56,469 bases of DNA from positions 1 through 56,469 of the forward strand of contig CAZSKP010000030.1 of assembly GCA_964607485.1 (NCBI GenBank), given 5' to 3'. Below are positions 1 through 32,564 of this stretch, piece by piece (position 1 is the stretch's first letter; each line of letters opens with the position of its first letter). Below the pieces are notes generated by a model. That model worked only from the letters and a program-made list of their open reading frames with translations. It was not told the origin of the DNA and did no database searches. Source of the stretch: an uncultured bacterium. GTDB lineage: Bacteria; Abyssobacteria; SURF-5. The translations under genes and the position numbers were made by a program.

Positions 1-59
1 GAGAAGAGGTGCCCGCAACTTCACCTTTGGGCGCCGGCGAAGTCGTTTCATGATGAAAG

Positions 60-1082
60 GTGACTGATTTGCAGACGACTCTCATCATCACAATAGACAC
101 AGAGCCGGACAATCAGTGGAGTGCGGAAGGCCGCCGAAAGTGTTCTCTCGACAATATCCAGGCCCTCCCCCAACTCCAACGCCTCTTCGACGGACATGGC
201 GTTCGGCCCACTTATCTCGTGTGTTACGCGGTAGTTGAAAACAACAAGTCCGCGTCGGTGCTGAGAGAATTCTTGGAAAGCGGCCGATGCGAGATAGGCG
301 CGCACATGCATCCCTGGAATACGCCGCCGGTCGAAGCCTACGAACTGGAGAGCGCAGCATATCCGCATAGGCTAAGACCCGAGTTGCAGCGCGAAAAGAT
401 TGCGGCATTGACTGATTGCATTCTCAAAGTTTTCGGGGTAAAGCCCACTTCCTATCGTGCCGGTCGGGGGGGACTCAATGGAGAAAGCCTGCGCATATTG
501 CAGGAACTCGGATACGTCGTCGATACATCTATCATGCCGACCCAGAGTCCCCGCTTTCATGGATGCAGCCTATGGGCCTCCATGCCTCTGGAGCCATATT
601 TCCCCGGCTATGAGAACGTGTGCGCGCCCGGAACGAGCCCGATTCTTGAGGTTCCAATGACGGCGTCAGTCATTGGCGGGTGGTGGCACACGCTGACTTT
701 TTCCCGCCGAAGAAATCTGGGCTTGACGCCCTTTGACCGACTGTTTCGCAAGGCGGGTTGGGCCAGGACGGTTCGGCTCAGACCCTCATGGTCTTCGGCT
801 TCGGAGATGATTAGGCTATGCGAGATAATGCTGGAAAAGCGAGCGCCGGTGCTCAACATGATGTTTCATTCCAGCGAACTCATCCCCGGAACCAGCCCCT
901 ATGTCGGGACATCCAAAGAAGCTAGCCAACTTCTCGAAGATATTGAAGCTGTTTTGCGTTTCCTGATAGAGCGGCGACGTGCTCAATCGGCTACTTTGAC
1001 CGAATTCGCCGAAGCCTGGAGCGAGCGCTCGCGTTCCGATGTGCTCGAAAGCAGACAAGAAAAAGCCGTGGTAAGGAGTTAG
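60..1082 (+). CDS. Polysaccharide deacetylase-like protein (WalW/CE4-like)
   Basis: ITIDTE, EIGAHMHPW and PTSYRAGR motifs and MMFHSSEL; GTG start after AAAGG; polysaccharide cluster context. Confidence 0.8.
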   Translation: MTDLQTTLIITIDTEPDNQWSAEGRRKCSLDNIQALPQLQRLFDGHGVRPTYLVCYAVVENNKSASVLREFLESGRCEIGAHMHPWNTPPVEAYELESAAYPHRLRPELQREKIAALTDCILKVFGVKPTSYRAGRGGLNGESLRILQELGYVVDTSIMPTQSPRFHGCSLWASMPLEPYFPGYENVCAPGTSPILEVPMTASVIGGWWHTLTFSRRRNLGLTPFDRLFRKAGWARTVRLRPSWSSASEMIRLCEIMLEKRAPVLNMMFHSSELIPGTSPYVGTSKEASQLLEDIEAVLRFLIERRRAQSATLTEFAEAWSERSRSDVLESRQEKAVVRS

Positions 1083-10235: not shown

Positions 10236-11093
10236 GTGGAAATCGTTAATCGCGTGAAGAATAGAATCCTCGCTTGGACAGTCCCTATCGTGCTGCTCCT
10301 TACCATCTATTCGCGAGTCCTCCGCTGGCTGGTAGATAAGTGGGCCACCAGTCCTGCGGACTCGCACGGTTTTCTAGTTCCTCCTATATCGGCGTGGCTA
10401 ATCTGGCGGTCGCGGGCAATCCTGGCAGAAGCTGAAAAGTCGGCGGGGAGTGGCGGGCTGCTTCTCGTGGTCGGTGCCTTGATTGTCCAGGTGGTTTGCT
10501 CGCTCGTTGACGTTAAAACGGTTGGAGCGTACAGCCTCATCCTCTTCATCTGGGGATCTCTCTATTTCTTGTGGGGACGTGCCGTGAGCCGGACAGTGCT
10601 TTTCCCCATCGGATTCCTCATCTTCATGGTTCCGGTCTATGATGGGGTCATCGACCCGATAAGCTTACATCTGAAACTCCTGGTGGCGAAACTTGCGACG
10701 TGGGTGCTGGACGCCAGCGGAATCCTCGTCGTCGTGAGAGAGGGCGTGATGATTCACATGCCGTCGGGCTCCCTCGAGGTGGCCGATCCGTGCAGCGGTA
10801 TTCGCTCGCTCGTAGCCTTATTCGCCATGGGTGCGCTGTTGGCCTATCTCCACCGGGGCAGGTTGTGGGAGCGCCTTGCGATTGTCCTCACGGTCGCTCC
10901 AATCGCTGTCGTAGCCAATCTCTCTCGGGTCATCATGCTGTGTCTCATCACGGAGAGGTGGGGCACGGACGCTGTGGAGAGCCAACTCGTTCACACGCTC
11001 GCCGGTATCCTCGTTTACATCGTCGCGCTCGCATGCCTGGTATCGTTCGAACGATTGCTGTCGGGAAACCGGTCCCGGCGGGAGCCCGGCTAG
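10236..11093 (+). CDS. Exosortase (EpsH/Xrt family)
   Basis: About 8 hydrophobic helices; SHGFLVP; catalytic triad context VADPCSG (Cys), NLSRV (Arg), VHTLAG (His). Confidence 0.92.
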   Translation: MEIVNRVKNRILAWTVPIVLLLTIYSRVLRWLVDKWATSPADSHGFLVPPISAWLIWRSRAILAEAEKSAGSGGLLLVVGALIVQVVCSLVDVKTVGAYSLILFIWGSLYFLWGRAVSRTVLFPIGFLIFMVPVYDGVIDPISLHLKLLVAKLATWVLDASGILVVVREGVMIHMPSGSLEVADPCSGIRSLVALFAMGALLAYLHRGRLWERLAIVLTVAPIAVVANLSRVIMLCLITERWGTDAVESQLVHTLAGILVYIVALACLVSFERLLSGNRSRREPG

Positions 11094-11115: not shown

Positions 11116-11790
11116 ATGAGAGCAATGAAACAACATAAGAGAATATCAGCCTTTCAGAGGCGCTATCTCCTCCTTGTCAGCTTGCTTGTGATATCGATGC
11201 TGGGCAATATCGCCTATCGCAACATTCCTCACGAGTGGTCGGAGCTTCCCCGGCTACAAGAATTTCCCGAGCAGGTCGGAGAATGGAAACACGTCGGTGA
11301 TATCACGATGGACCGGCGCGTCGTCGATGTTCTGGGGGCGGACGGGCTGATATTCAGAGAATATCAAAATCCTCTCGGCGAGAGCGTTTTCCTCTGCATA
11401 ATGTATCATGCGAACGACCGTTACGGCGCACACTCGCCAGAGATATGCTACACGTCACAGGGTTGGGATATCCAGCTAGAGGGGACAGGGCGAACGAAGC
11501 GTGTCGCATTGCCGGACTCCCATTTGAAGGCTAATGAGTTCACCGTTGAGAAGGGAGATCAGAGACAAATAGTGCTTTATTGGTTCTTTGGCTCGGGCAA
11601 GCGACAAACTCCCAGCCGGTCTCTCCAAATGCTTGCAAATGCCGGGTATCGCCTCACGCATTCACTCAGCGTGAGCGGCTTCGTGAGAGTGAGCTCTCCC
11701 ATAGCCTCTACCACAGGAACCGACTCAATGAAACGCACAACCGAATTCGCCGACGAGGTAGCTCTCACAATCCCCTCACTCCTGCCCTGA
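11116..11790 (+). CDS. epsI: EpsI family exosortase-associated protein
   Basis: N-terminal TM, FPEQVGEW, HSPEICY..QGW, VLYWF and FVRVS; directly after the exosortase. Confidence 0.88.
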   Translation: MRAMKQHKRISAFQRRYLLLVSLLVISMLGNIAYRNIPHEWSELPRLQEFPEQVGEWKHVGDITMDRRVVDVLGADGLIFREYQNPLGESVFLCIMYHANDRYGAHSPEICYTSQGWDIQLEGTGRTKRVALPDSHLKANEFTVEKGDQRQIVLYWFFGSGKRQTPSRSLQMLANAGYRLTHSLSVSGFVRVSSPIASTTGTDSMKRTTEFADEVALTIPSLLP

Positions 11791-11953: not shown

Positions 11954-11970
11954 TTGGCACACCTCTTGCT
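11954..11970 (+). promoter_or_regulatory. Sigma-54 (-24/-12) promoter
   Basis: TTGGCACACCTCTTGCT matches TGGCAC-N5-TTGC(A/T) exactly, intergenic upstream of the large secreted protein; IHF-like AACCAAGGGGTTA on the minus strand at 11891-11903. Confidence 0.8.
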
Positions 11971-12315: not shown

Positions 12316-15300
12316 ATGAGGGCTTCTAAAGCGATACTAGCCGCGACGTTGACATTGGCCTTTACAGTGATGCTCTCCCCTGTCGTTCATGCTTACACGG
12401 TAGTCCCGGGGCATCCGAGAGTCGATATAAGACCAGCAGATATCCCAACATTTGCGACTCGTGCTACGGGCAGCCACTCCAGTGAATATGGTACCCTCAA
12501 GTCTTGGTGTGACAGTCACATATCCGATTCGACGTCGATGGGTAGTACGACGATGGGTTATCACATCGAGGCCTATGCCTTTGTTTACCTTGTCGAGAAG
12601 CAACTGGGACATTCTTATTCCGCATATAGCAACCGCGCGAAAACACTTCTTGCGGCGATGTCTGGAAACCTCTCGTACAATGCAAACGAGGCCAACCGTG
12701 CGTTTGCACGAGGATTCGATTGGGTCTATGGTGAGCTGACGGCCTCCGAGAGAAGCAGTTATGCCTCCAAGCTCGCCACAATGGGCGACAATATGATGAA
12801 TTATTCCGACACGTCGGGAACCCACCGAATGGCAAGATATGTAGGTTCCTTGGTCCATGTCGGGTTAGCGCTCTATGATGATAATCCCTCGAAAGCTCAG
12901 CAATTCTTGGACCGGAGTCACTGGCATCTCTTGGACCCGGCTAATGTCTATCGAACCGTCGATAGTTGGGAGGAAATCGGCGGCGATGGCAACATGTATG
13001 CGGGCGATTATACGCATACAAATGGGCTCCGTTGGCCTGCCGAGTGGGTACACGCGTGGGATGTCGGAACCGATGGCGAGGACATCATGCCCACTTTCGG
13101 CCATCTGAAATACGCCAGTCTGTTCTATTGTTACTCGGCAAGGCCGAATCTCGTGAAACAACAAGTAGGGGATGGTTATCTGTATCCTAAAGACCCGCAA
13201 GCCCAAATAGCATTATACATGCTCGCAAATGTCTATCGCGACGGGCACGCTGAGTGGATGGCGAGCCAGACTGGACTTTATTGGAACACGCCTCAACATT
13301 GGCGCTATATCGCGTGGAACGACAAGAGCGTGAGCGTGCAACCCCCCAACGACCTTCCGAAGGTTCACTTTTTCAACATCTACGGCGCAACGTATATGCG
13401 AAGTGGATGGGATTTGACGAGCGGCAGCAGCGACATTATTTCTAATTTTCGGTGTCATGTGCGCCCCGATTTCCACAGTCATTGCGACCAGGGAGCGTTT
13501 GAGATTCATCGCGGCCCCGATTATCTGGCAATAGACAGCGGATACGGCGATTGCGACAAAGGCGAAAGCCCGCCGGGTTATCATTTCCCACATTATTATG
13601 TGCAGACGGTCGCACATAATTCGATGCTGATTTATGACCCGGACGAGGTTTTTGACTGGGCCGGCGGAAGCGCTGCGAAAATACGAGCGAACTCCGGCGG
13701 ACAACAATTCAAATATCGTTTGGGACCGTTCCCTTATGGTTCAAGAGCCCCTGGGGGACGGAACGCAATAGGTTTCCTTAAGAAATATCATGACGACACG
13801 AATTATACATATAATTATGCCGACCCAACCGTCGCCTATAGCAGCACTGGATGTGAACTTGACGGTGTGAACACGAAGATTGACAACTTCACGCGCCAAT
13901 ATATTTATTTGAAAGACCGGTTCTTCGTCGTATTCGACAGGGTACACTCGCTGGACAATCCACCCAGCAACGTCTTCAAGAAAAGCTGGCTTCTTCATTC
14001 CATCAATGCACCCGTTATAGAAGATAGTGGCGGTTGGAACGGTGGTGCAACGCCGAACGCCTACGGCGGAACTCCGGGAACGACCTCTTCCAATGCAAAC
14101 GTGTTTTCAGTAAGCCGTGGCAACAGCAAACTCTATATCGATACCGTTTACCCCGTGAATCATGTTGCCACGAAAATCGGCGGTCCCGATGCAAACGGCA
14201 ACTACAATAACGCCGGCTCGTATGAATGGTGGGCAGCGGGAGAAAACCACTACGACACATTTGACCACGGTCCCATAGAAGAAGACGGGCGCTGGCGTCT
14301 TGAGATCAGTCCGAGCGGCGTTGATGTTCGACGCGACAACATATTCCTCCATGTGCTTGAGCCGGTAGCAGCTACGGCTGCGCGAACGCCGGTTGCGCGT
14401 ATCGAAGATCCGGCGAATGGCTTTTACGGCGTCCACATCCGTCATGCGAGCGAGCCATGGGTCGTGATGTGCAGCGAACAGGAACAGCTTAAACAGGCCG
14501 TCTCGTACTCGATCACCGCGACCGGCACCGTGCGCCACCTTATCTGCGACCTGGCATCAGGTTCCGGCCAATACAATGTGTACAGGAACGGCCAGTTAAT
14601 CCCGGGTTCACCGTTTCCCGTGACCGAGAGCAACACGCTTTACTTCGAAGCCAGCGGCGGAGGCACCTTCACAGTATCGGAAGGACCACCCCCGATGGTC
14701 ACGATTAATCCCGTTACGACGCCGACGGCAAACGCCACGCAGACCATAACCGGAACCAAGACGACGACCGTCCAGACGATCCAGGTCAACGGGAGCACCT
14801 CGGGCGTATCGATCACAAGCTCCACCACATGGTCATACGCCGCGCAGCTTGCAGAAGGCGGCAATGCGTTCCACGTGACCGCCCACAACAGCTCCGGCGC
14901 CGAAGTTGGGTTCGCGGACACCAGCATTACTCTCGACTCCGTCCCACCCAATTCGCCAACGAGCTTGAATGCAACGACCATTACCGACCATTCCATCTCG
15001 CTTGCCTGGAATCCGCCCGCGGCGGCCTCCGACGGAGACACGGCCTCGTCCTATCTCATAAGGCGCGATGGAGTCCAGATCGACACGGCTACGTCGGCTT
15101 CCTACACCGACCTCGGTCTCACAGCCTTGACGAGTTACTCATATGAAGTGTTCGCCGTGGATGATATAGGCAATGTGAGCGCAACCGGTGCCTCCGGAGG
15201 GTTCACGACTCTTGAGGCGCCCTCTTTCGAGACCACCTCAGTCAATTTTGAGCAGCCCGTTTCCGTTACGCCAAGCGGTTTCCTGAAAGACAGCGGACTG

Positions 15301-16029
15301 CCTTATGATTCGGGACGCGGGTATGGATGGGACACCGACCTAAGCTCAGACACCCGCGACCGCGAACTCAACACCGATCAGAAGATAGACACGTTCATAT
15401 TCGCCACTTCCACCGCCCACACGTGGCAATACGACATCCCGAACGGAGAATACTTGATTTCGCTCGCAGCAGGAGACTATTGGGCAGCCGGACCCCATCG
15501 GATCAACGTGGAAGGGGCGGCGTTCATCAGCGACCAGTCGACGGTCGGGGAAGAATACATCTACGTCGATCGGCAGCCCGTAACAATTGCGGATGGCAAC
15601 CTCACGGTCGTCATTGGGGGATCCTCGGGACGCACCTGTCTGAATTATGTCATTATTGAAGGCCAGGGAGGACCGCCGCCAACCGATGAGACGCCTCCCA
15701 CCGGAACCGCCTCTATTAACGCCGGCGCGGAAAGAACGAACTCAAGCGTCGTCGTTCTATCTCTTCTTGCAACGGACAGCGGCAGCGGAATGGGAACGGG
15801 CGCGCAGATGCAGTTCAGCAACGATAGCTCGTCGTGGTCCTCTCCCGAGCCTTACGCGACGTCGAAGTCCTGGAGCCTCATCGATGTCGCTTCCGGAAAT
15901 GAAGGGACACGCACCGTCTATGTCAAGTTCAAAGATGTCGCCGGCAATTGGAGCCAGCCAATCAACGATTCCATTATTCTCGACAAGAGGCCGCCGCAAA
16001 CTCCGTTTGGCCTACAGATCGGAGGCTGA
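12316..16029 (+). CDS. Secreted multidomain heparinase II/III-like polysaccharide lyase with Ig-like, FN3 and carbohydrate-binding-like domains
   Basis: GGAGG RBS at 12305 and signal peptide MRASKAILAA...VHA; HSHCDQGAF, LAIDSG and TVAHNSMLI heparinase II/III-type motifs; FN3 (SISLAW..SYEVFAVD..GNVS); GRGYGW/PNGEYLI jelly-roll; final Ig-like domain. The frame is open from 12070. Confidence 0.75.
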   Translation: MRASKAILAATLTLAFTVMLSPVVHAYTVVPGHPRVDIRPADIPTFATRATGSHSSEYGTLKSWCDSHISDSTSMGSTTMGYHIEAYAFVYLVEKQLGHSYSAYSNRAKTLLAAMSGNLSYNANEANRAFARGFDWVYGELTASERSSYASKLATMGDNMMNYSDTSGTHRMARYVGSLVHVGLALYDDNPSKAQQFLDRSHWHLLDPANVYRTVDSWEEIGGDGNMYAGDYTHTNGLRWPAEWVHAWDVGTDGEDIMPTFGHLKYASLFYCYSARPNLVKQQVGDGYLYPKDPQAQIALYMLANVYRDGHAEWMASQTGLYWNTPQHWRYIAWNDKSVSVQPPNDLPKVHFFNIYGATYMRSGWDLTSGSSDIISNFRCHVRPDFHSHCDQGAFEIHRGPDYLAIDSGYGDCDKGESPPGYHFPHYYVQTVAHNSMLIYDPDEVFDWAGGSAAKIRANSGGQQFKYRLGPFPYGSRAPGGRNAIGFLKKYHDDTNYTYNYADPTVAYSSTGCELDGVNTKIDNFTRQYIYLKDRFFVVFDRVHSLDNPPSNVFKKSWLLHSINAPVIEDSGGWNGGATPNAYGGTPGTTSSNANVFSVSRGNSKLYIDTVYPVNHVATKIGGPDANGNYNNAGSYEWWAAGENHYDTFDHGPIEEDGRWRLEISPSGVDVRRDNIFLHVLEPVAATAARTPVARIEDPANGFYGVHIRHASEPWVVMCSEQEQLKQAVSYSITATGTVRHLICDLASGSGQYNVYRNGQLIPGSPFPVTESNTLYFEASGGGTFTVSEGPPPMVTINPVTTPTANATQTITGTKTTTVQTIQVNGSTSGVSITSSTTWSYAAQLAEGGNAFHVTAHNSSGAEVGFADTSITLDSVPPNSPTSLNATTITDHSISLAWNPPAAASDGDTASSYLIRRDGVQIDTATSASYTDLGLTALTSYSYEVFAVDDIGNVSATGASGGFTTLEAPSFETTSVNFEQPVSVTPSGFLKDSGLPYDSGRGYGWDTDLSSDTRDRELNTDQKIDTFIFATSTAHTWQYDIPNGEYLISLAAGDYWAAGPHRINVEGAAFISDQSTVGEEYIYVDRQPVTIADGNLTVVIGGSSGRTCLNYVIIEGQGGPPPTDETPPTGTASINAGAERTNSSVVVLSLLATDSGSGMGTGAQMQFSNDSSSWSSPEPYATSKSWSLIDVASGNEGTRTVYVKFKDVAGNWSQPINDSIILDKRPPQTPFGLQIGG

Positions 16030-16303
16030 CGGACTGAGCCGAAAAAAAACCGATGCAGGGTCTTCGGGCGAAAAGTAGGCCATGCAAGACTTGTCCTAAA
16101 GTTTACCATCCTTCTTGAACCTTCGATTTCAAGAGAACGAAAGACGCTCTTGTAAATTCCCTCCTAATTTGCTAACATTTCGGTGGGTGGCTCTGTCTTC
16201 GGATCACGAGTCAAGAAAGTCTGGAATCGCAAAGAGCGTCCGAGCGTTGTGAAATGCAAGTCGAACCAAGGCCGACAGTCCTTGAAAGTGGCGCACTGCT
16301 GAT

Positions 16304-17806
16304 ATGAAACGAGCTACTCGCGACTTCTCCGGTTCCTCTAAACAGAGTCCTTTCAAAAGCTACCTGTTGCTCATCCTGATTCCGATCACAATATTCTATT
16401 TGCTCACATTAAGGCCGGGACACGACTGGGGAGGCGATTTTGCCCAGTACATCGGTCATGCGAAGAACATCGCGAGTGGAAAGCCTTACGCAGAGATTGG
16501 ATATATTTATTGTCCATACTACCCCACAAAGGGTCCTCGGGAATATCCCCCCGGATTTCCGATGCTTCTTGCCCCGATCTACCGGATTTTCGGTTTGTCT
16601 TTTCTCGCTTTCAAACTGGAGATTCTCGCCTTTTTGCTGGGTTCCACGATTGTCCTCGTGCTCTTTTCGAGAGAATACCTATCAGACGTCTCAAAAGGAG
16701 TTTTCATTCTTCTTTTTGCAATGAACCCGTATGTCGTTTCTCTTAAGGACCACGTGATATCGGATATTCCGTTCTTGTTTTTTGTCTTTGTGTTTCTTGT
16801 TTGGACCAATAAAGTATACGAATCCAAGGGCTTTACCCTTAAAGCTGCCGCTATTTGCGGGGTCCTGATTTTTGTTTCGTATCTAATCCGGGGACCAGGA
16901 CTGCTGCTGATTCCAACTCTTCTCGTGTACGACGTTTATTCACACAGGAAGATTTCTGGTTTTGCTCTCATCGCAGTTTCCGTTTCAGTCGTTTTGACCT
17001 TGCTGAGCAAGGTCTTTTTTCACTCGGAGACCTCATATGTTGAACAGTTCTTGAGATGGAGACCCGGCGTCGTTCCTTACAACATTCGATATTATCTCTC
17101 GGCATTCAGCGAACTCTGGCCGCAGATTGCCGGGATACAAGCATCCAAGTACGTCTTGTTTGTGTCGGCATCACTCCTGGCAGCTGTCGGCCTTGGAGTG
17201 CGTCGGAGAATTTCTATAGGCGAGATCTTCCTGGCGGGTTACGTCGCGTTGATCTTGCTTTTCCCCTTCCGGCAGGGTTTGAGGTATTTTTTGCCGGTGA
17301 TTCCGTTCTATTTCCTATACTTACTGGTCGGAGTTGAATTCGCAACAAAGATGGTCAAACAAGTAGCAATACGCCGTATCATCGTTGGACTTCTTGCGTC
17401 TCTTGCCTGTGCATCGTATCTATCAGGCCTTACGGTTATCGTGAGAGACTCATCATCGCTTCCGGACGGTCCGTTTGTTCCAGAGGCAACCGAGATGTTT
17501 GGATATCTTCGTGAGAAGACCAGCCCGGATGCCACAGTCGTTTTCACGAAACCTCGGGTTCTCGCCCTCTTTTCGGGCCGCTCCGCGACTGCTTATCCCC
17601 TTTCCCAGGATGATGAATTTGTTCTCAAGTATTTCAAGGACGTTGGTGTCGATTACGTTATCGCGGACCTCAACAGTGAAGACGATACACAATATCTCAT
17701 TCCCATAATTCGTAAGAGGCCTTCGGATTTTCAAGAGGTGTTCCGCAATGAACGATTTGCCGTCTACATGTTTGAGGACAACGTGAGCCAAACAGTCAAT
17801 GGATAG
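16304..17806 (+). CDS. GT-C membrane glycosyltransferase (ArnT/PMT-like)
   Basis: Multi-TM; WGGDFAQY first-loop Asp, YPPGFP, ISDIPF and RYFLP; C-terminal soluble domain. Confidence 0.75.
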   Translation: MKRATRDFSGSSKQSPFKSYLLLILIPITIFYLLTLRPGHDWGGDFAQYIGHAKNIASGKPYAEIGYIYCPYYPTKGPREYPPGFPMLLAPIYRIFGLSFLAFKLEILAFLLGSTIVLVLFSREYLSDVSKGVFILLFAMNPYVVSLKDHVISDIPFLFFVFVFLVWTNKVYESKGFTLKAAAICGVLIFVSYLIRGPGLLLIPTLLVYDVYSHRKISGFALIAVSVSVVLTLLSKVFFHSETSYVEQFLRWRPGVVPYNIRYYLSAFSELWPQIAGIQASKYVLFVSASLLAAVGLGVRRRISIGEIFLAGYVALILLFPFRQGLRYFLPVIPFYFLYLLVGVEFATKMVKQVAIRRIIVGLLASLACASYLSGLTVIVRDSSSLPDGPFVPEATEMFGYLREKTSPDATVVFTKPRVLALFSGRSATAYPLSQDDEFVLKYFKDVGVDYVIADLNSEDDTQYLIPIIRKRPSDFQEVFRNERFAVYMFEDNVSQTVNG

Positions 17807-18119
17807 GACCAACGAGGGTCAAAGCGGGAAATCGGGCGGTCGGAAGCAAACCCATTCCAGCCGTTCCCCCCGTTCAGAACCGCACGATCGATTCCCACCG
17901 ATCTGGGAACCGTCTTTTCCGAATCTATTAATTTCGATATCACTCTGCGTTGAAGGCCCCGTTGCCTGAGAACTCTTCCAAGACTGCCGCTGCAAGCGAC
18001 ACACCGCTCCTTCACCTCCCCCAAAGAGCCCGGGAGGTCCGTCTTGACATCGACTCAGCTTAGCAGTATGCTTACTACTTGGAGAAAACAATGTCCAATG
18101 CCCATGTCTTTGGGGCAGA

Positions 18120-20249
18120 TTGTTCGCGGGAAGGGAGTTTCGCACGGAATTGAAGATACCTCCGGTTGCTAACGGCAATGGAAAGAATGTTGGCAGAGGG
18201 CTAACCCGGGACCTTTCTCTCTTGTTATTCGTTGCCGCGGCAAGTGGTGCGGCAGGGCTTTTCTCAGTATTGCGCGAACCTCAGGGGTGGATTCTGGTAC
18301 CCCGGGCCTGGATGGGAACCCTCAGCGTTCAACGCTTGCTCCATGTCATCTTGGGCATGGGCCTACCCGTTTGGGCGGCCATCTGGGCGGTCATAGGTCT
18401 TGAGCTTGACGGGCTCATCCTATTCGTGGCCAAGAAAAGGAGTCTTCGCCTCCATCGGGTTTCCTTTGTCGCGCTCTGGCTGCTCGCTTATTTTGGGGGA
18501 TCAGCGACGCTGCTTGCGTTTGCTCCCGAATCCTGGGCGGCTGCATTATTGAAAAGGTTTCCATATTCGGTTGCACCCGTGGCGGCGGCATTGGCCCTGC
18601 CGACCCACGTGTTGTCTGTCGCTTTGTTCGACAATCAGCGAGTCCCGAGAATTCGATCTTTCGCAGTGGTCATGGGGGGGGCCGCTGCCTGTCTGGCAGC
18701 GATATTCGCCAATATCTACTGGCTTCCCGATCTTCTCTCAGTGAGTAGCCTGGTTTGGACAGTTGCCATATTTCTCTCGGGGTTGGTCCTCGCCTCAGTG
18801 CTCTGGGTCATCGACCTTCAGACATTGGAGCGAGTTCTTCAGAGGCTGTCTAACGCTTGTCTGCTCAGACCCGTTCTCCCCACGTTCTTGCTCGCATCTG
18901 TGTTGGTGGTAGCGATATTGTCGGGAATCGAGCGGCCTCGGGCCGCTGCTGAAAAAAGACCGACGCGTCCAAATATTATTCTGGTTACGGTAGATACCCT
19001 CCGTGCGGACCATCTGAGCAGCTACGGATATCACTTAGTCACCTCTCCGAATCTCGACCATTTCGCTGAAGAAGCCACGAGATTTACCCACTGCATATCC
19101 TGCGCCCCGATTACCAATCCCTCCGTGGCGTCTATCATGACCTCGCAGTATCCTTCTTTCCATTCGTTAGGGGCAGCCGGGGGCAATAGGCAACCGATGC
19201 TGTTGAGCGAAGTGACGCTGGCAAAGGTTCTATCCAAAAACGGATACCGGACTGCGGCTTTCGTGAGCAATTTTGTGCTTAGGCGAAAGATGCGCTTCTA
19301 CGTGGGATTCGATCTGTACGACGATACGTTCACTTCGTACGAGCCCACGCGTGGTCTGTTAGAGAGAACTGCCGACAAAACCACGGAATATGCTCTGAAC
19401 TGGTTGAAGAACGGTGCAAAAGAGAGTTTCTTCCTGTGGGTACATTACCAGGACCCTCACGGCCCTTATACACCTCCGGAACGCTATCTGGAGCACTTCC
19501 CCGAACGCACTTATTCAAGCGGTCCAAAAACGCTGCCAGTTACGGACAACACCGGTAAGGGCGGCATACCCGAGTACCAGTATTTCAGCGGCCAAACATC
19601 TCCGGCGTATTACCGGTCTCGATATGACGGGGAGATCGCCTACGCCGACGAATGTATCGGTCGGCTTTTCGCGGGGATAAAAACCCTGGGGTTGTGGGAA
19701 AGATCAATTGTGGTCTTCACCGCCGACCATGGTGAGTCCATGGGCGAACATGGATACTACTTCTGTCATCAGCAGGACGTCACAGACGAGCTGCTTCATG
19801 TGCCCCTCATCATTCGCATACCCGGGGCGGAGCAAGCTCGGAAAGTCGACGAGTTGGTGTCGACCATCGACATCGGCCCGACACTCCTGGAGTCTGCGGG
19901 AGTGGTAGAGAAACTGGGAACCAGCGGCTTAAGCCTGATGCCTCTTATACGAGGGAGAACTCAAAGCCTCGGCCGCGAGCATGTTGTTTCGGAGGACACT
20001 CACGGCCGAATATGTTTTCATTCGCGCGAGACGAAATATATCTCGGGTCCTGATGGCGAGCGGCTCTATGATTTGACCCGGGACCCGCTTGAATCGAAGA
20101 ATGTCCTCAAAGAGAAACCGGACCTCGCCCTTACGTGGCATCCTGTCCGAGACAGTTACTTAAGCGAGGCCAAACCGCGTAGCGGGACCGTTCAGCCTCC
20201 AGATCGCCGTGATGTCGAAACGCTCAAGAGCCTCGGCTACATTAACTGA
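18120..20249 (+). CDS. Membrane-anchored sulfatase/alkaline-phosphatase-superfamily protein
   Basis: N-terminal TM bundle; PNIILVTVDTLRAD, WVHYQDPH, YDGEI and TADHGE; start codon uncertain. Confidence 0.85.
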   Translation: MFAGREFRTELKIPPVANGNGKNVGRGLTRDLSLLLFVAAASGAAGLFSVLREPQGWILVPRAWMGTLSVQRLLHVILGMGLPVWAAIWAVIGLELDGLILFVAKKRSLRLHRVSFVALWLLAYFGGSATLLAFAPESWAAALLKRFPYSVAPVAAALALPTHVLSVALFDNQRVPRIRSFAVVMGGAAACLAAIFANIYWLPDLLSVSSLVWTVAIFLSGLVLASVLWVIDLQTLERVLQRLSNACLLRPVLPTFLLASVLVVAILSGIERPRAAAEKRPTRPNIILVTVDTLRADHLSSYGYHLVTSPNLDHFAEEATRFTHCISCAPITNPSVASIMTSQYPSFHSLGAAGGNRQPMLLSEVTLAKVLSKNGYRTAAFVSNFVLRRKMRFYVGFDLYDDTFTSYEPTRGLLERTADKTTEYALNWLKNGAKESFFLWVHYQDPHGPYTPPERYLEHFPERTYSSGPKTLPVTDNTGKGGIPEYQYFSGQTSPAYYRSRYDGEIAYADECIGRLFAGIKTLGLWERSIVVFTADHGESMGEHGYYFCHQQDVTDELLHVPLIIRIPGAEQARKVDELVSTIDIGPTLLESAGVVEKLGTSGLSLMPLIRGRTQSLGREHVVSEDTHGRICFHSRETKYISGPDGERLYDLTRDPLESKNVLKEKPDLALTWHPVRDSYLSEAKPRSGTVQPPDRRDVETLKSLGYIN

Positions 20250-20337
20250 AAGAGACATCGGCCAGTTATCTATCTCTCCCCATGCGGCATGTCAGCTCAA
20301 CTTGGCGGACGCAGGCCTCTTGGCATCACTCCGCTCA

Positions 20338-21729
20338 CTACACTTCCTTGAAATTTACGTCCAGCAGGCCGTATCTCTTCATCTTTTGATACAGCGTGGT
20401 CCGGTTGATCTCAAGGAAGTCGGCCGTCTTGTTTCGGTTGCCCTTGAAGTGCTGGAGCGTCTTGGAAATGGCGTTCTTTTCCGCGGCCTCGACCGCCACG
20501 TGGAGCGGCGCCAGGCTGTCCGATGGTTGGACGGTCCCGGGGTCGCGCAGGTAGTCGGGCAGAAGGTCGAAGGTGATGTATTCGCCCGTGCAGAGGATAA
20601 CGGCTCTCTCGATGGCGTTCTCGAGCTCCCTGACGTTGCCCGGCCACGAGTGTGACAGCAACCTCTTCATCACCTCATCGCTGACCCCCGCGACGTGCTT
20701 CGAGTTGATTTTGTTATACCTCTCGATGAAATGCTCGACCAACAGGGGCACGTCGCCGAGCCGGTCTTTGATGGGCGAGAGGTTTATCGACACCACGTTC
20801 AGGCGGTAGAAAAGGTCCTCACGGAACTCGCCGTTGGCGACGCATCGCTCGAGGTCGCGGTTCGCCGCCGCGATCACCCGCGCGTTACTCTGGATCGTCT
20901 CCGTGCTGCCCACCCTCTCGAATTTCTTATCCTGGAGGAACCTGAGCAGCTTCACCTGCAGCCGCAGGCTGAGCGTGTCGATCTCATCCAGGAAGACTGT
21001 GCCTTCCTTCGCCCGCTCGATTCTGCCGACCTTATCGCTCGAAGCGCTCGTGAAGGCCCCCTTCACATGGCCGAAGAGCTCGCTCTCAAGAAGGTTTTCC
21101 GACAGCGCGCCGCAGCTTATCTCCATGAGCGGCTGGTCCTTGCGGCGGGAATGGTAGTGAATGGCCCGGGCAATGGTCGATTTTCCGGTGCCGCTCGCGC
21201 CGTTTATCAGGATGGTCGCCTCGGTGTCGGCGATGACTGAAATCAAATCGAACGTCTCTTGCATCTGTTTGTCGTTGCTCACGAGGTTTTCGAACTGGAA
21301 CTTCTCGGCAAGCTTCTTTTTCAGCTCCAGATTCTCACGCCGGAGGTTCTTCTGCTCGAGCGCCCGCTCGATGGATAGCAAGACTTCATCGTCGTTGAGA
21401 GGTTTCGTTATGTATTCGTAGGCTCCCTGCTTGATCCCGGTGACCGCATCCTCGATCGTGCCGTACGCGGTTATCAAGATGACTATGCTCTCGGGATGTT
21501 TTTCCTTGACGGCTTTCAAGAGGTCGAACCCGTTCAGGCCGGGCATGCTTATGTCGGTGATAATCACGTCGCATGCGGTGTGACCCAGCATGCTCAGAGC
21601 CTTCTCGCCGTCCTCGGCTGCGTTGACGGGGTAGCCTTCGAGAGAGAGGAGTTCTTTGAGAGAGTATCTGGTGAGCGGATCGTCGTCAACTATGAGGATC
21701 CGGGCGTCCTTTGATTTCTTGCCGCGCAT
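20338..21729 (-). CDS. Sigma-54-dependent response regulator (REC-AAA+-Fis HTH, NtrC family)
   Basis: ILIVDDD/TDISMP receiver; GASGTGKS, ESELFGHVKGAFTSA, FLDEI and WPGNVREL; C-terminal HTH. Confidence 0.95.
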   Translation of the reverse strand: MRGKKSKDARILIVDDDPLTRYSLKELLSLEGYPVNAAEDGEKALSMLGHTACDVIITDISMPGLNGFDLLKAVKEKHPESIVILITAYGTIEDAVTGIKQGAYEYITKPLNDDEVLLSIERALEQKNLRRENLELKKKLAEKFQFENLVSNDKQMQETFDLISVIADTEATILINGASGTGKSTIARAIHYHSRRKDQPLMEISCGALSENLLESELFGHVKGAFTSASSDKVGRIERAKEGTVFLDEIDTLSLRLQVKLLRFLQDKKFERVGSTETIQSNARVIAAANRDLERCVANGEFREDLFYRLNVVSINLSPIKDRLGDVPLLVEHFIERYNKINSKHVAGVSDEVMKRLLSHSWPGNVRELENAIERAVILCTGEYITFDLLPDYLRDPGTVQPSDSLAPLHVAVEAAEKNAISKTLQHFKGNRNKTADFLEINRTTLYQKMKRYGLLDVNFKEV

Positions 21730-21750
21730 ATTTCGGGAGGTCTGCGTGTC

Positions 21751-23403
21751 CTAGGGGGTCAACTTGCTCAGTGGAAAAGTCAGATGCGTTCTTGTTCCGA
21801 CATCTTCTTCGGATTCGACCTCGATTTTTCCACCGTATTTATCGACCATCTTCTTCATGATCGCCAGGCCGAGACCTGTCCCCCGACCGTATTCCTTCGT
21901 TGTCCAAAAGGTGTCGAAAATGCGAGATTGAACATGCTTCGGGATTCCACAGCCGTCGTCGTGGACAGTGATGTGGAGACTGTCACTGTCCATCTTTGTT
22001 TCGATGCCCACATTGCCTCGCTCGGGCTTGACGGCGTCGAAGGAGTTCGACAACAGGTTGCCGACGATCTGATAGAAATCGTTCGTCCTCACGGTGGGAC
22101 TCTCGGAGGCTAATTTCAGACGAAGCGAAATGTCTTTGCCTTCGTGCCTGCCCCGGACAACCTTCACGGCGCTGTCGATTACCGTATTCAGCGAAGTAAA
22201 TTCGCCGTCGAACGAGGCGCTCTTACGCGAAAAACTGAGGAGCGACCTCACCAGCGACGCTATCCGGTTCAAACCCTTCTGGGCTTCGCCGAGATATTCC
22301 CTGACGGGGTCGTCCTCGCCAGCCTGCGCCAGAGAGAGGTTTATCAGGCGCATGACGCCGTCGAGGGGGTTGTTGACCTCGTGCGTTATCATTGAGGTCA
22401 GGCTGCCGATGAGAGAGAATTTTTCCGCCTCGAGGAGTCGCTGCCGCATATCATAGTTCTTCGTATTATCTTCGACGAGAAGCAGCCCGCCGAGCAGTTC
22501 GCCCTCGGTCGAGGCAAAGGGAGAGAAAAACATGTTTACGATGCGAAACTCGGGGGAATTCGTGACCTTTACGTCGTTGAGGGAGAAGGGCTTTCCCCCC
22601 AGCAGCAGGGCTTCGAGCCGCTCCTTCAGCTTGTTGCGCTCCACGTCGAAAGGCAGGTCCAGAATGCTCAGCGCGGGGATTTGCGCCTCGGCACCCCGGC
22701 CGAGGAGCCGGCCGAGGTCTGTCTCCCGACTGCAATAGGTGATGTTGAACTGGCGGTCGAATATCAGCACATACTGCGAAAGGCACCGCAAGATGTTGGC
22801 GTTGTAATTCTTTATTTCACGCAGCTGCCTCTCTATATCGTCGAGACTTTCCTGGGTCTTCTCGGTTTCTCTGACGAGTCGCTCGTTCGCCTTGAAGGGC
22901 CGTTGATACGCGATCATCTGACCCAGCACGTCCGCGCATCCCTCGGATATGGCTTGAAGCTTCTTCAGCTCTCTTTTCGAGAAGGGCCGACCGGACTTTC
23001 GACCGGCCACGTTGATTACTCCCAGCACTGCCGCCCCCTTCAGCACGGGACACGACATGAATGTGTCCACGGGGTACCTGTCCTTCCGCGACGTCAACCC
23101 TTTTGCCTTTGAAAGGTCGGTCACCAGGAGAGGTTCCCTGTTGGCGGCCACGTAACCCGAGATGCCCTCGCCGAGCCTGACGATCCGGCCGCAGTGGCGG
23201 TTGCGGCGAGTGCCGACCGCCTTTACCAGCTGCAGGCTTTCGTTGTCCTCCTCCATGAGAAGGAGCGAGCCCGACTCCGCGCGCAGTTCACCCAGACAGT
23301 GACGGAGTATTTCCTCGGACGTCTTATTCCAGTCGAAGATATCGCTGATGGGCGGGACAAGCGATAACTGCTTCTTGCGGGTCTTCGTGTGGGTGGACTT
23401 CAT
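21751..23403 (-). CDS. GAF-domain sensor histidine kinase (cytoplasmic)
   Basis: GAF (GEGISGYVA), THEVNNPL H-box, NLLSNSFDA, DDGCGI and GTGLGL; GGAGGGAG RBS before ATG 23403; no TM evident. Confidence 0.92.
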   Translation of the reverse strand: MKSTHTKTRKKQLSLVPPISDIFDWNKTSEEILRHCLGELRAESGSLLLMEEDNESLQLVKAVGTRRNRHCGRIVRLGEGISGYVAANREPLLVTDLSKAKGLTSRKDRYPVDTFMSCPVLKGAAVLGVINVAGRKSGRPFSKRELKKLQAISEGCADVLGQMIAYQRPFKANERLVRETEKTQESLDDIERQLREIKNYNANILRCLSQYVLIFDRQFNITYCSRETDLGRLLGRGAEAQIPALSILDLPFDVERNKLKERLEALLLGGKPFSLNDVKVTNSPEFRIVNMFFSPFASTEGELLGGLLLVEDNTKNYDMRQRLLEAEKFSLIGSLTSMITHEVNNPLDGVMRLINLSLAQAGEDDPVREYLGEAQKGLNRIASLVRSLLSFSRKSASFDGEFTSLNTVIDSAVKVVRGRHEGKDISLRLKLASESPTVRTNDFYQIVGNLLSNSFDAVKPERGNVGIETKMDSDSLHITVHDDGCGIPKHVQSRIFDTFWTTKEYGRGTGLGLAIMKKMVDKYGGKIEVESEEDVGTRTHLTFPLSKLTP

Positions 23404-24184
23404 CCAAGCGCTCCCTCCGCCCCATGGTTCTTCTGAAGGAGGGGACAATCCTTCAGAATCGATTCGCTCTCAAACGCGCCTGTCGCTCGCGTGAAATCTT
23501 CCCTGTATATCGAGCGCCCTGAACCTTACTCTTTGAATGACAAACATCCGAAAGCCGGGGCGATGAATCCTCTGGTTCCCTCGTACATCCTATTTATCGT
23601 CTTCTGGCGAAAGAAAATTTAGTTATTCACCGTAAGACTATCTTAGTCGCACAAAGGGTACTTTCGCTTGAAAAGAAATTTTTTGAAGATGTAATGTACG
23701 GAACAACGGTTATTGCCCGCGCGCCCGACGGCATTATCCGATCGTTCATTTCTGCTCGATATAACTATGAGATTATTATATACCAATTTTCTGATTTGTC
23801 AAGGGTAAAAGGTAACTTTTTGCTTCCGTTTCTAAACTGGTGTTCAGGCGGCGTGCATGCACTCTCTTGCACAATAACTTTTACTGACAGTGTGCGGGTT
23901 GCTTGCCGGAGCCTGATGTTTCTCATTTCAGTTGCGCTCTGCAGTTTCGGAGTTCTTAGATATTTTAAGTGCAGAATTTGCTTAATCATGCTCCCAAATG
24001 CGCGTGAACGCAAGAGTTTTCCTCAAGAAAATTTCTGTTGTGAATAGTCCACACTATTGCCTCTTCGTTCAGATTTCAAGACATTTTTCCGGGCTGGCAC
24101 CGCCGTTTGTTTCACCCCATACTTATGCCTTAAGTACTGTGTTGACAATAGATTGCCAAGAAATGAGAAGAGCTCTTCGAGATA

Positions 24185-24200
24185 CGGCCCGCATTTTGCA
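24185..24200 (+). promoter_or_regulatory. Putative sigma-54 promoter for the PilZ-sugar transferase-FN3 unit
   Basis: CGGCCCGCATTTTGCA has GG-N10-GC spacing with a TTGCA -12 element; divergent from the kinase/bEBP pair. Confidence 0.6.
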
Positions 24201-24275
24201 TTTTTCGGAGACGGAGATACATGCGAGTAGGAAGAATTCTGCTGGCATTCATAAGAAAAGGGACGTCGCTTCGTC

Positions 24276-24623
24276 GTGACTTCGTCCGAGAGGCGTAAGG
24301 ATGCCCGCATGGAAGCTCATCTTTTCACAGTGTTCCGGCGGCTTCCCAAGAAAAAAAAGGAGGCAGACCTTCCGCAAGTGGGATATACCCGCGATATTTC
24401 CGTGGGAGGTGTGTACTTCTATACCCAAAGCGACGTGAGAAGAGGAGAGCGTTTGTCTTTGACGATTCACGTAACATCCGACTGGGCGGAAGGAGGCTCT
24501 CCGCCGAGGCTGGAGGGAGAGGGGAAGATCCTGAGAGTGGAACGTGCCCGCAACGCTCTTCCACCAAATGATTTTCGAGGCGTGGCCGTCCAGTTCGCAC
24601 AGGAAGTGGCTGTTTCTTTTTAG
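24276..24623 (+). CDS. Stand-alone PilZ-domain protein
   Basis: RRKDAR (RxxxR) and DISVGG (DxSxxG) c-di-GMP motifs; C-terminal GVAVQF. Confidence 0.88.
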   Translation: MTSSERRKDARMEAHLFTVFRRLPKKKKEADLPQVGYTRDISVGGVYFYTQSDVRRGERLSLTIHVTSDWAEGGSPPRLEGEGKILRVERARNALPPNDFRGVAVQFAQEVAVSF

Positions 24624-24661
24624 TTTTGTGCAAGGCAACAAGAAGAACACGAGCAACAACA

Positions 24662-25618
24662 ATGAAATCGATTAAGAACATCAGACTCGGAGTTGGGTTT
24701 CTCATCGTCGTGGGAGCTCCTCCCTACCTCCTCTACGATTTTCTGCATATCGCGCAGGGGCGGAGAAGTTTGCTCCACTCGCTCATGTTTATTGCGATAG
24801 CCTGTCTTGTGGCGGTCACTGCGTACTGGCTGCTCAGGTTGAAGGGAAAGGACTACGCGCGGCTGAAGCCTCTGTGGGAACGACCTGTTTCGTTCATACT
24901 TCTCGCGCTTTCTTCTCCGCTGCTCCTCATTACCGCGCTCATGATCAAGCTCGAATCACCGGGCTCTGCGTTCTACAGCCAGGAGAGGGTGGGCAAGAAC
25001 AGGAGAGCGAAGGAAAGGCGCCGGGCGCTTCGCGATGACGAACATTATCCGTTTCGGGATCGCAGAAACGGCGACCGCCGCCAGCGCGACCACGGGGGTA
25101 GGCCCTTCACCATGTACAAGCTCCGCTCGATGAGAGCGGACGCCGAGGAAGAGACGGGAGCCGCGTGGTCCTCCGGTGATCATGACCACCGCGTGACCAA
25201 GATCGGCTACTACATTCGGAAGACACATATCGATGAGCTTCCGCAACTCTTCAACGTGCTCATGGGTCAGATGAGCATCATCGGCCCCCGACCGGAGAGG
25301 CCGGCCTTCATCGCCCAACTGACGGAAGTCATCCAGGGCTATCGAGAGCGCCTGATTGTTTCACCCGGCATTACCGGGCTGGCGCAAGTGCAGCAAAAGC
25401 ACGACGAGTCGGTTGAGGACGTGAAGAGAAAGCTTCAATACGACAAGGAATACATTGGAAATGTCTGTCTCCTGATGGACATTCAAATAATTCTTCAGAC
25501 CATCGCTCTCATTTTCAATCTGTTCTGGAAGGCGCTCAAAAAGAGGACGATCGAAAAGATCGAACCCAAGACCCCGGAAACCCTGCTGACCGAAAGCGCT
25601 CCCCGGCGGAGCAGGTAA
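24662..25618 (+). CDS. Priming sugar transferase (undecaprenyl-phosphate phosphoglycosyl transferase, WcaJ/EpsL family)
   Basis: IKLESPG, QERVG, YKLRSM, IDELPQLFNV..GQMSIIGPRPER and PGITGLAQV. Confidence 0.92.
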   Translation: MKSIKNIRLGVGFLIVVGAPPYLLYDFLHIAQGRRSLLHSLMFIAIACLVAVTAYWLLRLKGKDYARLKPLWERPVSFILLALSSPLLLITALMIKLESPGSAFYSQERVGKNRRAKERRRALRDDEHYPFRDRRNGDRRQRDHGGRPFTMYKLRSMRADAEEETGAAWSSGDHDHRVTKIGYYIRKTHIDELPQLFNVLMGQMSIIGPRPERPAFIAQLTEVIQGYRERLIVSPGITGLAQVQQKHDESVEDVKRKLQYDKEYIGNVCLLMDIQIILQTIALIFNLFWKALKKRTIEKIEPKTPETLLTESAPRRSR

Positions 25619-25823
25619 ACGGGTGAAACGAGACTGAGCGCGGTCGTTTGCAGGGGGACATGCAGGCGCCACCGCTCAGTCCCAATGGGAATATCCGGAC
25701 CGTTCGTATTTTCCCCGGCGCCAGATAAGACGTTTCCTCGGCCCGAGCGAGACCAAAATCCCTTATCCTTTGGAGGGTACGTGCACAATCTGTCCGGGTA
25801 GAGGACGACGTGGAGGGAAGACA

Positions 25824-26225
25824 ATGCGAAGGGCTGACAGAATCCTGCGCAGCGGCTTGGTTGTTGCGCTTTTCATTATGCTCTTGTTGCCATCCGGTGT
25901 GCGGGCCGCCGATGTCTACATCAACCGGCCATATGTAACTCTCACCTGGACGGCCAACCCCGACCCCGATCTGGGCGGCTATGAGGTTTTCAGGGCCAAT
26001 TCTTACGACGGTCCCTATGACAAGCTACACGAAGGGCTCATTACCGCCACCTCCTGGACCGACACCAACGTGAGCGACGGCCTCACGTACTATTACAAAC
26101 TGCGGGCGGTTGACCTATGCGGCAACGTGAGCGATTTCTCCCTCCCTTCAGATGCCGCCGTCATACACCTCACGGATCAGGATGCGCATCTCGCGCCCAG
26201 TTCCGAGACTGATGACGCCTCCTAG
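25824..26225 (+). CDS. Small secreted fibronectin type III domain protein
   Basis: GGAGGG RBS; signal peptide ending VRA; VTLTW..DLGGYEVFR..WTD..TYYYKLRAVD..GNVS. Confidence 0.82.
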   Translation: MRRADRILRSGLVVALFIMLLLPSGVRAADVYINRPYVTLTWTANPDPDLGGYEVFRANSYDGPYDKLHEGLITATSWTDTNVSDGLTYYYKLRAVDLCGNVSDFSLPSDAAVIHLTDQDAHLAPSSETDDAS

Positions 26226-32192: not shown

Positions 32193-32564
32193 GGTCCTGT
32201 TCCTTTCCCTCCTTACCCCTCCTGGTTGTGATGCTTCTCAATCAGCGAAGTACGGTGGTTTCGCGCAACCGGACCGGACGAAAAGCGGCATCCGCTCGAC
32301 GCTCCGGAGGCGTGACGCACCTGTATTGAGCAAGAATCAAGCCAATTACACGGGGCACGGCCCCCTATTTCACCGTGTCAATTCCGGCCCCGATTGCGGC
32401 GAGCGGTCGGCTACCTGGGCTCTCGCCTCATCACGCAAGATCACCTCAGCCGTATCCCCGTTGACTTGATGGAACATCCGATGATATTTTATATGTGCGA
32501 GAGAAGGTGCGGACTGGCGCTTGATCGTAATCATCGTAATCGAGGAAGAAGGGGTGCCCACGAG

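Follow-up and report, generated by a model that had tools for sequence, protein, structure and literature searches.

A possible docking pair made from a split fibronectin type III domain in an exosortase locus of an uncultured Abyssobacteria-like bacterium

An exosortase locus from an uncultured bacterium (GTDB lineage Bacteria; Abyssobacteria; SURF-5) encodes two exported proteins that may form a docking pair made from a split fibronectin type III (FN3) domain. The locus lies in the window, the whole 56,469-nucleotide stretch that was analysed (contig CAZSKP010000030.1 of assembly GCA_964607485.1), and the genome to which it belongs (G000) is 97.5% complete. A large secreted heparinase-like protein ends, just past an Ig-like domain, in a short free tail that reads as the first half of an FN3 A strand, and a small exported FN3 protein encoded downstream is without that half-strand. 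This sequence observation is real and more than chance. It can be read as strand addition in trans, in which the free tail would complete the open edge of N-terminal FN3 modules and so tether the enzyme, a modelled reading whose chance of being right is put a little below even. The broader proposal, that the two genes represent a docking pair in which C-terminal half-strand tags on secreted enzymes and half-strand-less N-terminal FN3s provide a cohesin-dockerin-like tethering in uncultured Abyssobacteria-like bacteria, is more tentative still. The docking reading is plausible and passed every test run, all of them computational and one of them prone to false comfort; binding, its strength, the tethering role and the choice of the real acceptor partner are what we infer from these tests. 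As the earlier note on this DNA had supposed, no previous description of a split-FN3 enzyme-tag arrangement was found in the literature, subscription journals being outside the coverage.

The large protein and its C-terminal tail

The proposed donor is composed of the following parts.

12316..16029 (+), proposed donor gene, coding for a 1237-aa secreted heparinase II/III-like multi-domain protein (translation; Pfam Hepar_II_III_C, HepII_C and fn3)
12316..12393 (+), signal-peptide-like N-terminus, aa 1-26 (translation read by eye)
14953..15174 (+), complete internal FN3 domain, aa 880-953, entered via SITLDSVPPNSPTSL at 14923-14967 (Pfam fn3 28.1 bits, profile positions 2-74 of 84)
15685..15996 (+), C-terminal Ig/PKD-like repeat domain, aa 1124-1227, with SIILDKRPP at its end (sequence matches, AlphaFold2 and Foldseek)
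15997..16026 (+), proposed donor strand, the 10-aa tail QTPFGLQIGG, aa 1228-1237 (past the usual domain end; co-fold interface)

The open reading frame (ORF) is preceded just 5' by a GGAGG. Pfam matches Hepar_II_III_C at aa 385-455 (26.9 bits against a cut-off of 24, on a 71-residue stretch alone) and HepII_C at aa 719-783, with a Glucodextran_B-like Ig domain at aa 798-865 below cut-off, and an NCBIfam HepB-like match reaches 115.9 bits (E 1.4e-33), far below its cut-off of 600. The C-terminal repeat domain is of a very common kind, found in 10324 representative proteins at E<=0.001, many of which have tens of copies. Modelled alone by AlphaFold2 (AF2), it is a beta-sandwich with a predicted local distance difference test (pLDDT) score of 80.3, and its structural neighbours in Foldseek are PKD-like. 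No paralogue of this domain was found in G000 at E<=0.01.

The C-terminus of the large protein, SIILDKRPPQTPFGLQIGG (15970-16026, with the stop at 16027-16029), and the entry to its internal FN3, SITLDSVPPNSPTSLNAT (14923-14976, directly N-terminal of the Pfam fn3 match), lie exactly at the coordinates first reported, and the two align without gaps at 8 identical positions of 19. This had been described as a residue-for-residue match to the entry of an FN3 domain, but at both junctions the preceding Ig-like domain contributes six of the eight identities (S, I, L, D, P, P) through its conserved final strand and boundary, and the FN3 entry proper is matched by the tail at P1230 and L1233 only. 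The boundary was placed from 2069 domain instances in 242 proteins, for which the commonest alignment ends were query positions 117 (579 instances) and 118 (381), position 117 of the C-terminal domain being P1227. Since the alignments mostly end at P1227 or the next residue, SIILDKRPP is the domain's own last strand and boundary motif, and this accounts for the six identities. The protein had also been said to stop after the first strand of a further FN3 domain. The A-strand pattern stands, as the PP and the tail together read PP-x-x-P-x-x-L-x-I, the pattern that is also found at the protein's own Ig-to-FN3 junction, but only the ten residues QTPFGLQIGG lie beyond the domain, and these have the pattern of a half-strand.

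The same arrangement is present in three same-family genomes, Candidatus Abyssobacteria relatives, in which secreted proteins have tail-bearing C-terminal modules that are 54-60% identical to the G000 domain over the aligned stretch. These end in KQPPNPPASIAIE (G004), ISPPSTPAPPLIGH (G003) and ATPPSAPEPPLIMP (G006), compared with KRPPQTPFGLQIGG in G000. All four tails stop 9-10 residues past the PP (lengths 10, 10, 10 and 9), and the PP, a Pro three residues after it and an Ile five residues further are identical in every one, so the tail is conserved in length and at these positions, and the unconserved tail that the earlier note had named as a refutation was not what was seen. The N-terminal parts of the proteins differ, with a lyase-like part in G000, a region of about 300 aa in G004 and a HepII_C-like part plus two repeats in G003 and G006; as different N-terminal parts lead to the same C-terminal end, the domain plus tail behaves as a portable unit. 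The earlier note had set its proposal against a simple truncation, in which homologues would continue into a full FN3 domain. None was found to do so: the 258 matches at E<=0.001 (from 6080 candidates) hit the repeat domain only, no protein among them besides the query covers more than 62% of residues 960-1237, and the family search gave C-terminal modules only. A recent truncation of the large protein was excluded as well, since a three-frame translation of 15940-16310 contains no FN3-like continuation. The tail would thus appear to be under some constraint.

When the domain is modelled alone as a 114-aa construct, the tail is coil, with a pLDDT of 64 for residues 101-110 and 45 for residues 111-114, and so would be free to dock; the same values spoke against a tail that folds back as a cap onto its own domain. 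A search of G000 with seven regular expressions over 13185 ORFs of at least 100 aa gave no further tag-bearing protein, the other matches being judged unrelated because they were frames that overlap other genes or proteins without an Ig-like end. The search for similar proteins that had been proposed was therefore successful in part, with tails in G003, G004 and G006 and three candidate acceptors in G000, but with no second tail-bearing protein in that genome.

A conserved tail could also have a function unconnected to the FN3 modules, for example as a signal for secretion, for processing or for another partner, or as a contact to polysaccharide. Such a role would fit the conserved length and the three conserved positions, and the domain elsewhere carries other recurrent short tails, such as the PEP-CTERM signal in P0070, which means that it often precedes C-terminal signals. 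It is nevertheless judged improbable: the tail is without a hydrophobic span or a basic cluster and so is not a PEP-CTERM signal, no known signal family in Pfam or NCBIfam was matched, and its pattern fits an FN3 first strand, which is where the co-fold described below places it.

Other proteins in which this Ig-like domain comes last mostly have an end of another kind. The domain is C-terminal-most in 39 of the 242 proteins, and 21 of these end no more than 8 residues past the projected end of the last strand (two of the 21 rest on partial alignments); the remaining 18 have tails of 11-26 residues, with an LD-x-x-x-P type linker boundary kept in 11. Seven complete-looking secreted proteins that end in the domain (P0018, P0029, P0199, P0208, P0215, P0067 and P0098) stop exactly 16 residues past the boundary Pro with related tails, x-I-T-I-T-S-P-x-D-G-x-V-x-x-x-x, which read like the first strand of a further Ig-like domain that is intact in other matches. 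These ITITSP-type tails may be a parallel case of a one-strand stub, and one idea is that stubs of this kind after terminal Ig-like domains form a general class of tags for complementation in trans. Six other proteins (P0052, P0217, P0015, P0137, P0140 and P0097) have short hydrophobic C-terminal tails with an LPL core, such as ...VFLPLIVK, ...VYLPLTIRLTP and ...HLPLVLRNRPSIP, a motif for which we know of no name.

The small FN3 protein and the predicted complex

The proposed acceptor is encoded at the downstream end of the locus.

25824..26225 (+), proposed acceptor gene, coding for a 133-aa exported FN3 protein (translation; AF2 pLDDT 89.6; FN3 fold with Z of about 11; small orthologues P0122 and P0123)
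25824..25907 (+), signal-peptide-like N-terminus, aa 1-28 (read by eye; same position in the alignment of homologues)
25908..26177 (+), FN3 domain that lacks the first half of strand A, mature residues 1-90 (AF2 strands; structural alignments)

The mature protein starts ADVYINRPYVTLTW and, as originally noticed, the VTLTW of strand B begins nine residues past the likely cleavage site. AF2 places strands at mature residues 3-5, 10-13, 22-30, 49-52, 60-69 and 84-86. That the fold is FN3 is seen from VIA-align (Z 10-11.4, root-mean-square deviation (rmsd) 2-2.6 over 80-88 residues) and from Foldseek, which gave 23 matches in the PDB at E<=0.001, the top ones all FN3. The Pfam fn3 model did not match the small protein at E<=0.01 over its full length or at E<=1 over its mature part; it matched 9 of the 22 members of alignment A1, and a 562-aa relative in G003 is matched at profile positions 16-82 of 84 only. 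In the structural alignments the model starts at residue 3-5 against residue 13-17 of solved FN3s, indicating that most of strand A is absent. With 8orl_A, for example, residues 3..90 align to 15..104 of the chain (Z 10.7, rmsd 2.4, 87 aligned), and with 7jgt residues 3..89 align to 13..92 (Z 9.3). About 10-13 canonical N-terminal FN3 residues, including the Pro-rich lead-in, have no counterpart, which bears out the earlier note's description of this protein where the fold is concerned. The possibility that ADVYINR serves as a full strand A, which would have spoken for a complete domain, was not borne out, as only a three-residue VYI remnant is left and the canonical first half is missing.

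The module is not restricted to the small protein. Two paralogues in G000, the 784-aa C77 protein and the 675-aa C4 protein, are long exported proteins with this FN3 as their first module, and these two and the small protein are the only ORFs among the 13185 with its signature, all of the N-terminal type directly after the signal peptide. In the family, the match starts at query position 25 or before in 11 of 11 copies and the N-termini align, so the start of the match falls inside the signal-peptide region or at its end. Scanning genome contigs with the small protein gave 38 loci, of which 3 were close, all family members, and scanning metagenome contigs gave 24 loci, all with at most 47% identity. 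The C77 protein (P0127; contig C77 4099-6543, minus strand) and P0128-P0130 end in a conserved Cys-containing stretch (a GG-rich linker and C-F-I-A-T-A-A-Y-G-S) followed by a hydrophobic segment and basic residues. No Pfam family covers this stretch, which may be an anchoring or sorting region.

Small orthologues of 116 aa (86% identity) and 117 aa (68%) are known from metagenomes, the former also having the acidic C-terminal stretch. The positional counterparts in G003, G004 and G006, downstream of the priming sugar transferase, are open frames that measure 447-804 aa (the contig ends within the one in G006), and from these one might argue for an artefact, in which the small gene is a broken long FN3-module gene and the stop at 16027-16029 in the large gene is a sequencing or assembly error or a recent mutation. 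This is scarcely credible in view of the small orthologues, the relatives of the large protein that stop at the same place, and the reading downstream of the stop, which is not FN3-like in any frame.

Residues 1124-1237 of the large protein were co-folded with the mature small protein, with the use of alignment A1. The scores were 0.84, 0.84 and 0.85, and the best of three controls scored 0.02. Among 157 solved complexes 116 attain the score mark, as against 2 among 215 mismatched pairs, a calibration that is only rough because an own alignment was used here. The runs share at least 97% of their contacts, and the pLDDT of the partner is at least 85. On the donor side, the interface consists of the tail (1223-1237) plus 1140-1142. 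On the acceptor side it takes in residues 3, 5-7, 9-15, 17-19, 21-23, 25, 63-79, 81-82 and 84, which correspond to strand B (9-15), the B-C turn and the F/G region (63-84). The closest contacts are those of L1233 and Q1234 with L12, T13 and W14, and P1227-P1230 rest on residues 67 and 75-78. The model thus puts the tail into the strand-A slot of the small FN3, the outcome that the earlier note had named as support, and what defines fold complementation in trans, a missing edge strand and a partner's disordered segment lying on strand B, is present in the prediction only.

If this model is correct, the large protein would be the carrier of a portable C-terminal unit, composed of the Ig/PKD-like domain and a free, Pro-rich tail of 10 residues that resembles the first half of an FN3 A strand in its pattern, and its dock partners in G000 would be the 133-aa protein, the 784-aa C77 protein and the 675-aa C4 protein. 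The tail would lie antiparallel on the open end of strand B, against the F/G hairpin, and would complete the edge of the sandwich in trans, thereby tethering the enzyme to proteins with an FN3 tip, either on the cell surface or in the matrix that the exosortase/exopolysaccharide (EPS) locus produces. The stand-alone 133-aa form could then act as a soluble cap or competitor. The hydrophobic C-terminal segment of the C77 protein is a possible membrane anchor, which would leave the FN3 at the distal end of the protein so anchored.

The exosortase locus and the balance of the evidence

The two genes are part of an exosortase/EPS locus with glycosyltransferases, an exosortase, EpsI, a regulator pair and a priming transferase, of which the following features bear on the interpretation.

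10236..11093 (+), exosortase gene (Pfam Exosortase_EpsH 217.1 bits and NCBIfam 8TM_EpsH 176.6 bits, both above cut-off)
11116..11790 (+), EpsI-family gene (Pfam DUF3485 115.1 bits; NCBIfam EpsI_fam 94.9 bits, above cut-off)
11955..11969 (+), sigma-54 -24/-12-like element 5' of the large gene (exact TGGCAC-N5-TTGC, TGGCACACCTCTTGC, the sole exact match in the window)
20338..21729 (-), sigma-54-dependent response regulator (Pfam Sigma54_activat 222.1 bits; NCBIfam PEP_resp_reg 405.2 bits, below its cut-off of 502.6)
21751..23448 (-), sensor histidine kinase (Pfam HATPase_c, HisKA and GAF_2)
24626..25618 (+), priming sugar transferase, directly 5' of the small gene (Pfam Bac_transf 188.5 bits)

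The NCBIfam XrtA model scored 189.7 bits on the exosortase, below its cut-off of 208. The order of tail-protein gene, regulator pair, small PilZ-like gene, transferase and FN3-module gene recurs in G003, G004 and G006, with the same priming transferase preceding the FN3-module gene, so that the tail-protein and FN3-module genes hold conserved positions in the locus in these genomes and in G000. The small conserved gene (23694-24047, + strand, in the window) has the histidine kinase on one side and the priming transferase on the other in each of the four loci; its G003 copy (L037:7823-8230, minus strand) has a weak PilZ match (E 0.002, below cut-off) and the window copy has no Pfam match. Both the large and the small gene had been assigned candidate sigma-54 promoters with a common upstream motif. 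The exact site 5' of the large gene upholds one half of this, and similar elements occur 5' of the tail-protein genes of G003 and G006 and of one G003 FN3-module gene, but 5' of the small gene no site was found in 25619-25823 at up to 2 mismatches, nor any TGG-N9-[TC]GC in a second scan of the same interval. The common motif had to be given up, since the two upstream regions have no common word of 10 or more bases and only one common 9-mer, compared with a mean of 0.6 in shuffles.

Among the ten genomes of the family, the donor domain is present in G000, G003, G004 and G006, and the FN3 module in these four plus G001 and G005. Every donor-bearing genome also has acceptors. The family genomes are kin and not independent, and the tally is therefore descriptive only. 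The exosortase is above cut-off in four of the ten (G000, G003, G006 and G007). Co-occurrence with the exosortase, which had been put forward as a check, was seen for the donor in G000, G003 and G006, but at this cut-off G004 has a donor and no exosortase and G007 an exosortase and no donor. EpsI gave no match in G001, G002, G005, G007 and G009, an empty result that says little.

Several neighbours deserve mention. Neither the large nor the small protein ends in a PEP-CTERM signal, and a regular-expression scan found no ORF with one in the window; elsewhere in G000 there were three such matches, one of them doubtful. A PEP-CTERM-like protein of about 230-245 aa adjoins the FN3-module gene in G003 (L037:860-1558, minus strand) and G006 (L042:3719-4453, plus strand), and a similar one of 226 aa is about 6 kb away in the same locus of G005 (L040:10044-10724, plus strand). 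Two genes after the heparinase-like gene there is a sulfatase (18120-20249, + strand; Pfam Sulfatase 193.6 bits), and a radical SAM gene (26362-27273, minus strand) adjoins the small FN3 gene and weakly resembles a number of families, among them the anaerobic sulfatase maturases (TIGR03942 36.9 bits, far below cut-off). The two together hint at a sulfated polysaccharide in the locus. Further along, a 443-aa protein (32394-33725, + strand) weakly matches the model of the MADS3 anti-phage AAA ATPase (87 bits, cut-off 420).

The docking tag inferred in the earlier note gains from the conservation of the tail and from a co-fold score of 0.84 against 0.02, but a number of points weigh against it. 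The small FN3 is confidently folded alone, with a pLDDT of 89.6 overall and 83 for its first ten residues, from a predictor that cannot show stability; it has a short first strand of its own in the VYI remnant, and engineered FN3 scaffolds tolerate the loss of the first few N-terminal residues. The tail drifts faster than its domain, and the position of L1233 is Pro in G003 and G006. Two of the six genomes with the FN3 module (G001 and G005) are without the donor domain, which was searched for in them and in G007, G008 and G009 with a single sequence at 1e-12 and with profile A2 at 0.001 and found in none. There is one donor per genome, and with one tail-bearing protein to three acceptors in G000 the term 'system' is thin. 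The small gene is without the promoter element of the large one, and the co-location of the two could be explained by plain synteny of the EPS locus. Finally, the co-fold shows that the tail fits the slot in the model, which is not the same as binding, and its score may come from the reassembly of a split FN3 out of the predictor's memory of solved FN3 folds.

Many of these points are also expected if the tail is a vestigial linker with a first-strand stub, left behind when a downstream domain was lost long ago, and if the N-terminal FN3 is an ordinary one with which it has only the locus in common. The stub would be tolerated because it is short and disordered, and the FN3 modules, having nothing in front of them, would have shed the Pro-rich half-strand. 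On this account SIILDKRPP is a standard boundary that many different domains follow in other proteins (a P..L motif comes within three residues after it in 11 of 1563 instances), the tail is disordered alone and drifts, the FN3 folds alone, acceptors exist without a donor in G001 and G005, in the unrelated G060 the lead-in to an N-terminal FN3-like domain is shorter still, and a passing co-fold is what a split domain would give through fold memory. A neutral stub would, however, be expected to vary in length, and the four tails are 10, 10, 10 and 9 residues long with PP, P and I in common despite domains that are 54-60% identical and N-terminal parts that differ. Moreover, 21 of the 39 proteins that end in the domain stop within 8 residues of its projected last-strand end, and the position of the tail complements that of the gap in the acceptor. 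A vestigial stub is considered unlikely, though it is a serious contender.

Should docking through the tail be true, it would constitute a minimal portable extracellular connector, with a tag of about 10 residues and a partner module of about 90. Bacteria would then have a way of fixing matrix-modifying enzymes to surface proteins without cohesins, sortases or pili, strand complementation would be extended from fibre assembly to enzyme tethering, and there would be a testable reading for the short conserved tails that follow terminal Ig-like domains in many metagenomic proteins. If there is no docking, both parts are ordinary, a linker stub and an N-terminal FN3 that are neighbours in a conserved EPS locus.

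Comparison with known systems

Established cases of strand complementation in bacteria are the chaperone-usher and type V pili, in which a core strand is missing, the incomplete subunit depends on a chaperone or on proteolysis, and the subunits polymerise. The likeness is that an Ig-like subunit short of a strand has it supplied in trans by a neighbour. In contrast, only half of the peripheral strand A is missing here, from an acceptor that in the prediction folds without help; the strand would be donated by one protein to a different one, with no hint of a polymer. A search of G000 for the usher (PF00577) and the PapD-like chaperone (PF00345) gave 0 matches, with control genomes matched as expected.

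In its proposed use, the pair resembles the cohesin-dockerin interaction of cellulosomes, in that a small C-terminal tag on secreted polysaccharide-active enzymes would bind a scaffold or anchor module. The dockerin is a Ca-dependent helical module, whereas the contact proposed here is beta-strand addition, and neither protein has a Pfam match to dockerin or cohesin at E<=0.01.

Strand donation between secreted matrix proteins is also seen in TasA of the Bacillus subtilis biofilm matrix, which is reported to be a homopolymeric fibre of one protein (PMC9674648); the hetero-pair of an enzyme and an FN3-tipped protein shows no sign of a fibre. For the FN3 fold itself, 4m6a, an engineered consensus FN3, is reported to be a homodimer with an N-terminal strand swap, in which the first FN3 strand is supplied by another chain, whereas the arrangement described here is a natural one of two genes.

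The nearest solved analogue is the myomesin:obscurin-like-1 complex, in which an incomplete Ig-like domain is completed in trans by a linker strand of the partner on strand B (PMC5222588). The entry of this complex, 5fm5, was also the top VIA-align match of the small-FN3 model (Z 11.4, rmsd 10.6, 100 aligned). The muscle complex is eukaryotic and intracellular, with an I-set Ig acceptor and an internal linker as donor, and has been solved and measured, whereas the split FN3 is bacterial, would use an FN3 acceptor and a C-terminal tail, and is a prediction only. What the two would have in common is a strand-donating segment that follows a folded domain of the partner and lies antiparallel to strand B.

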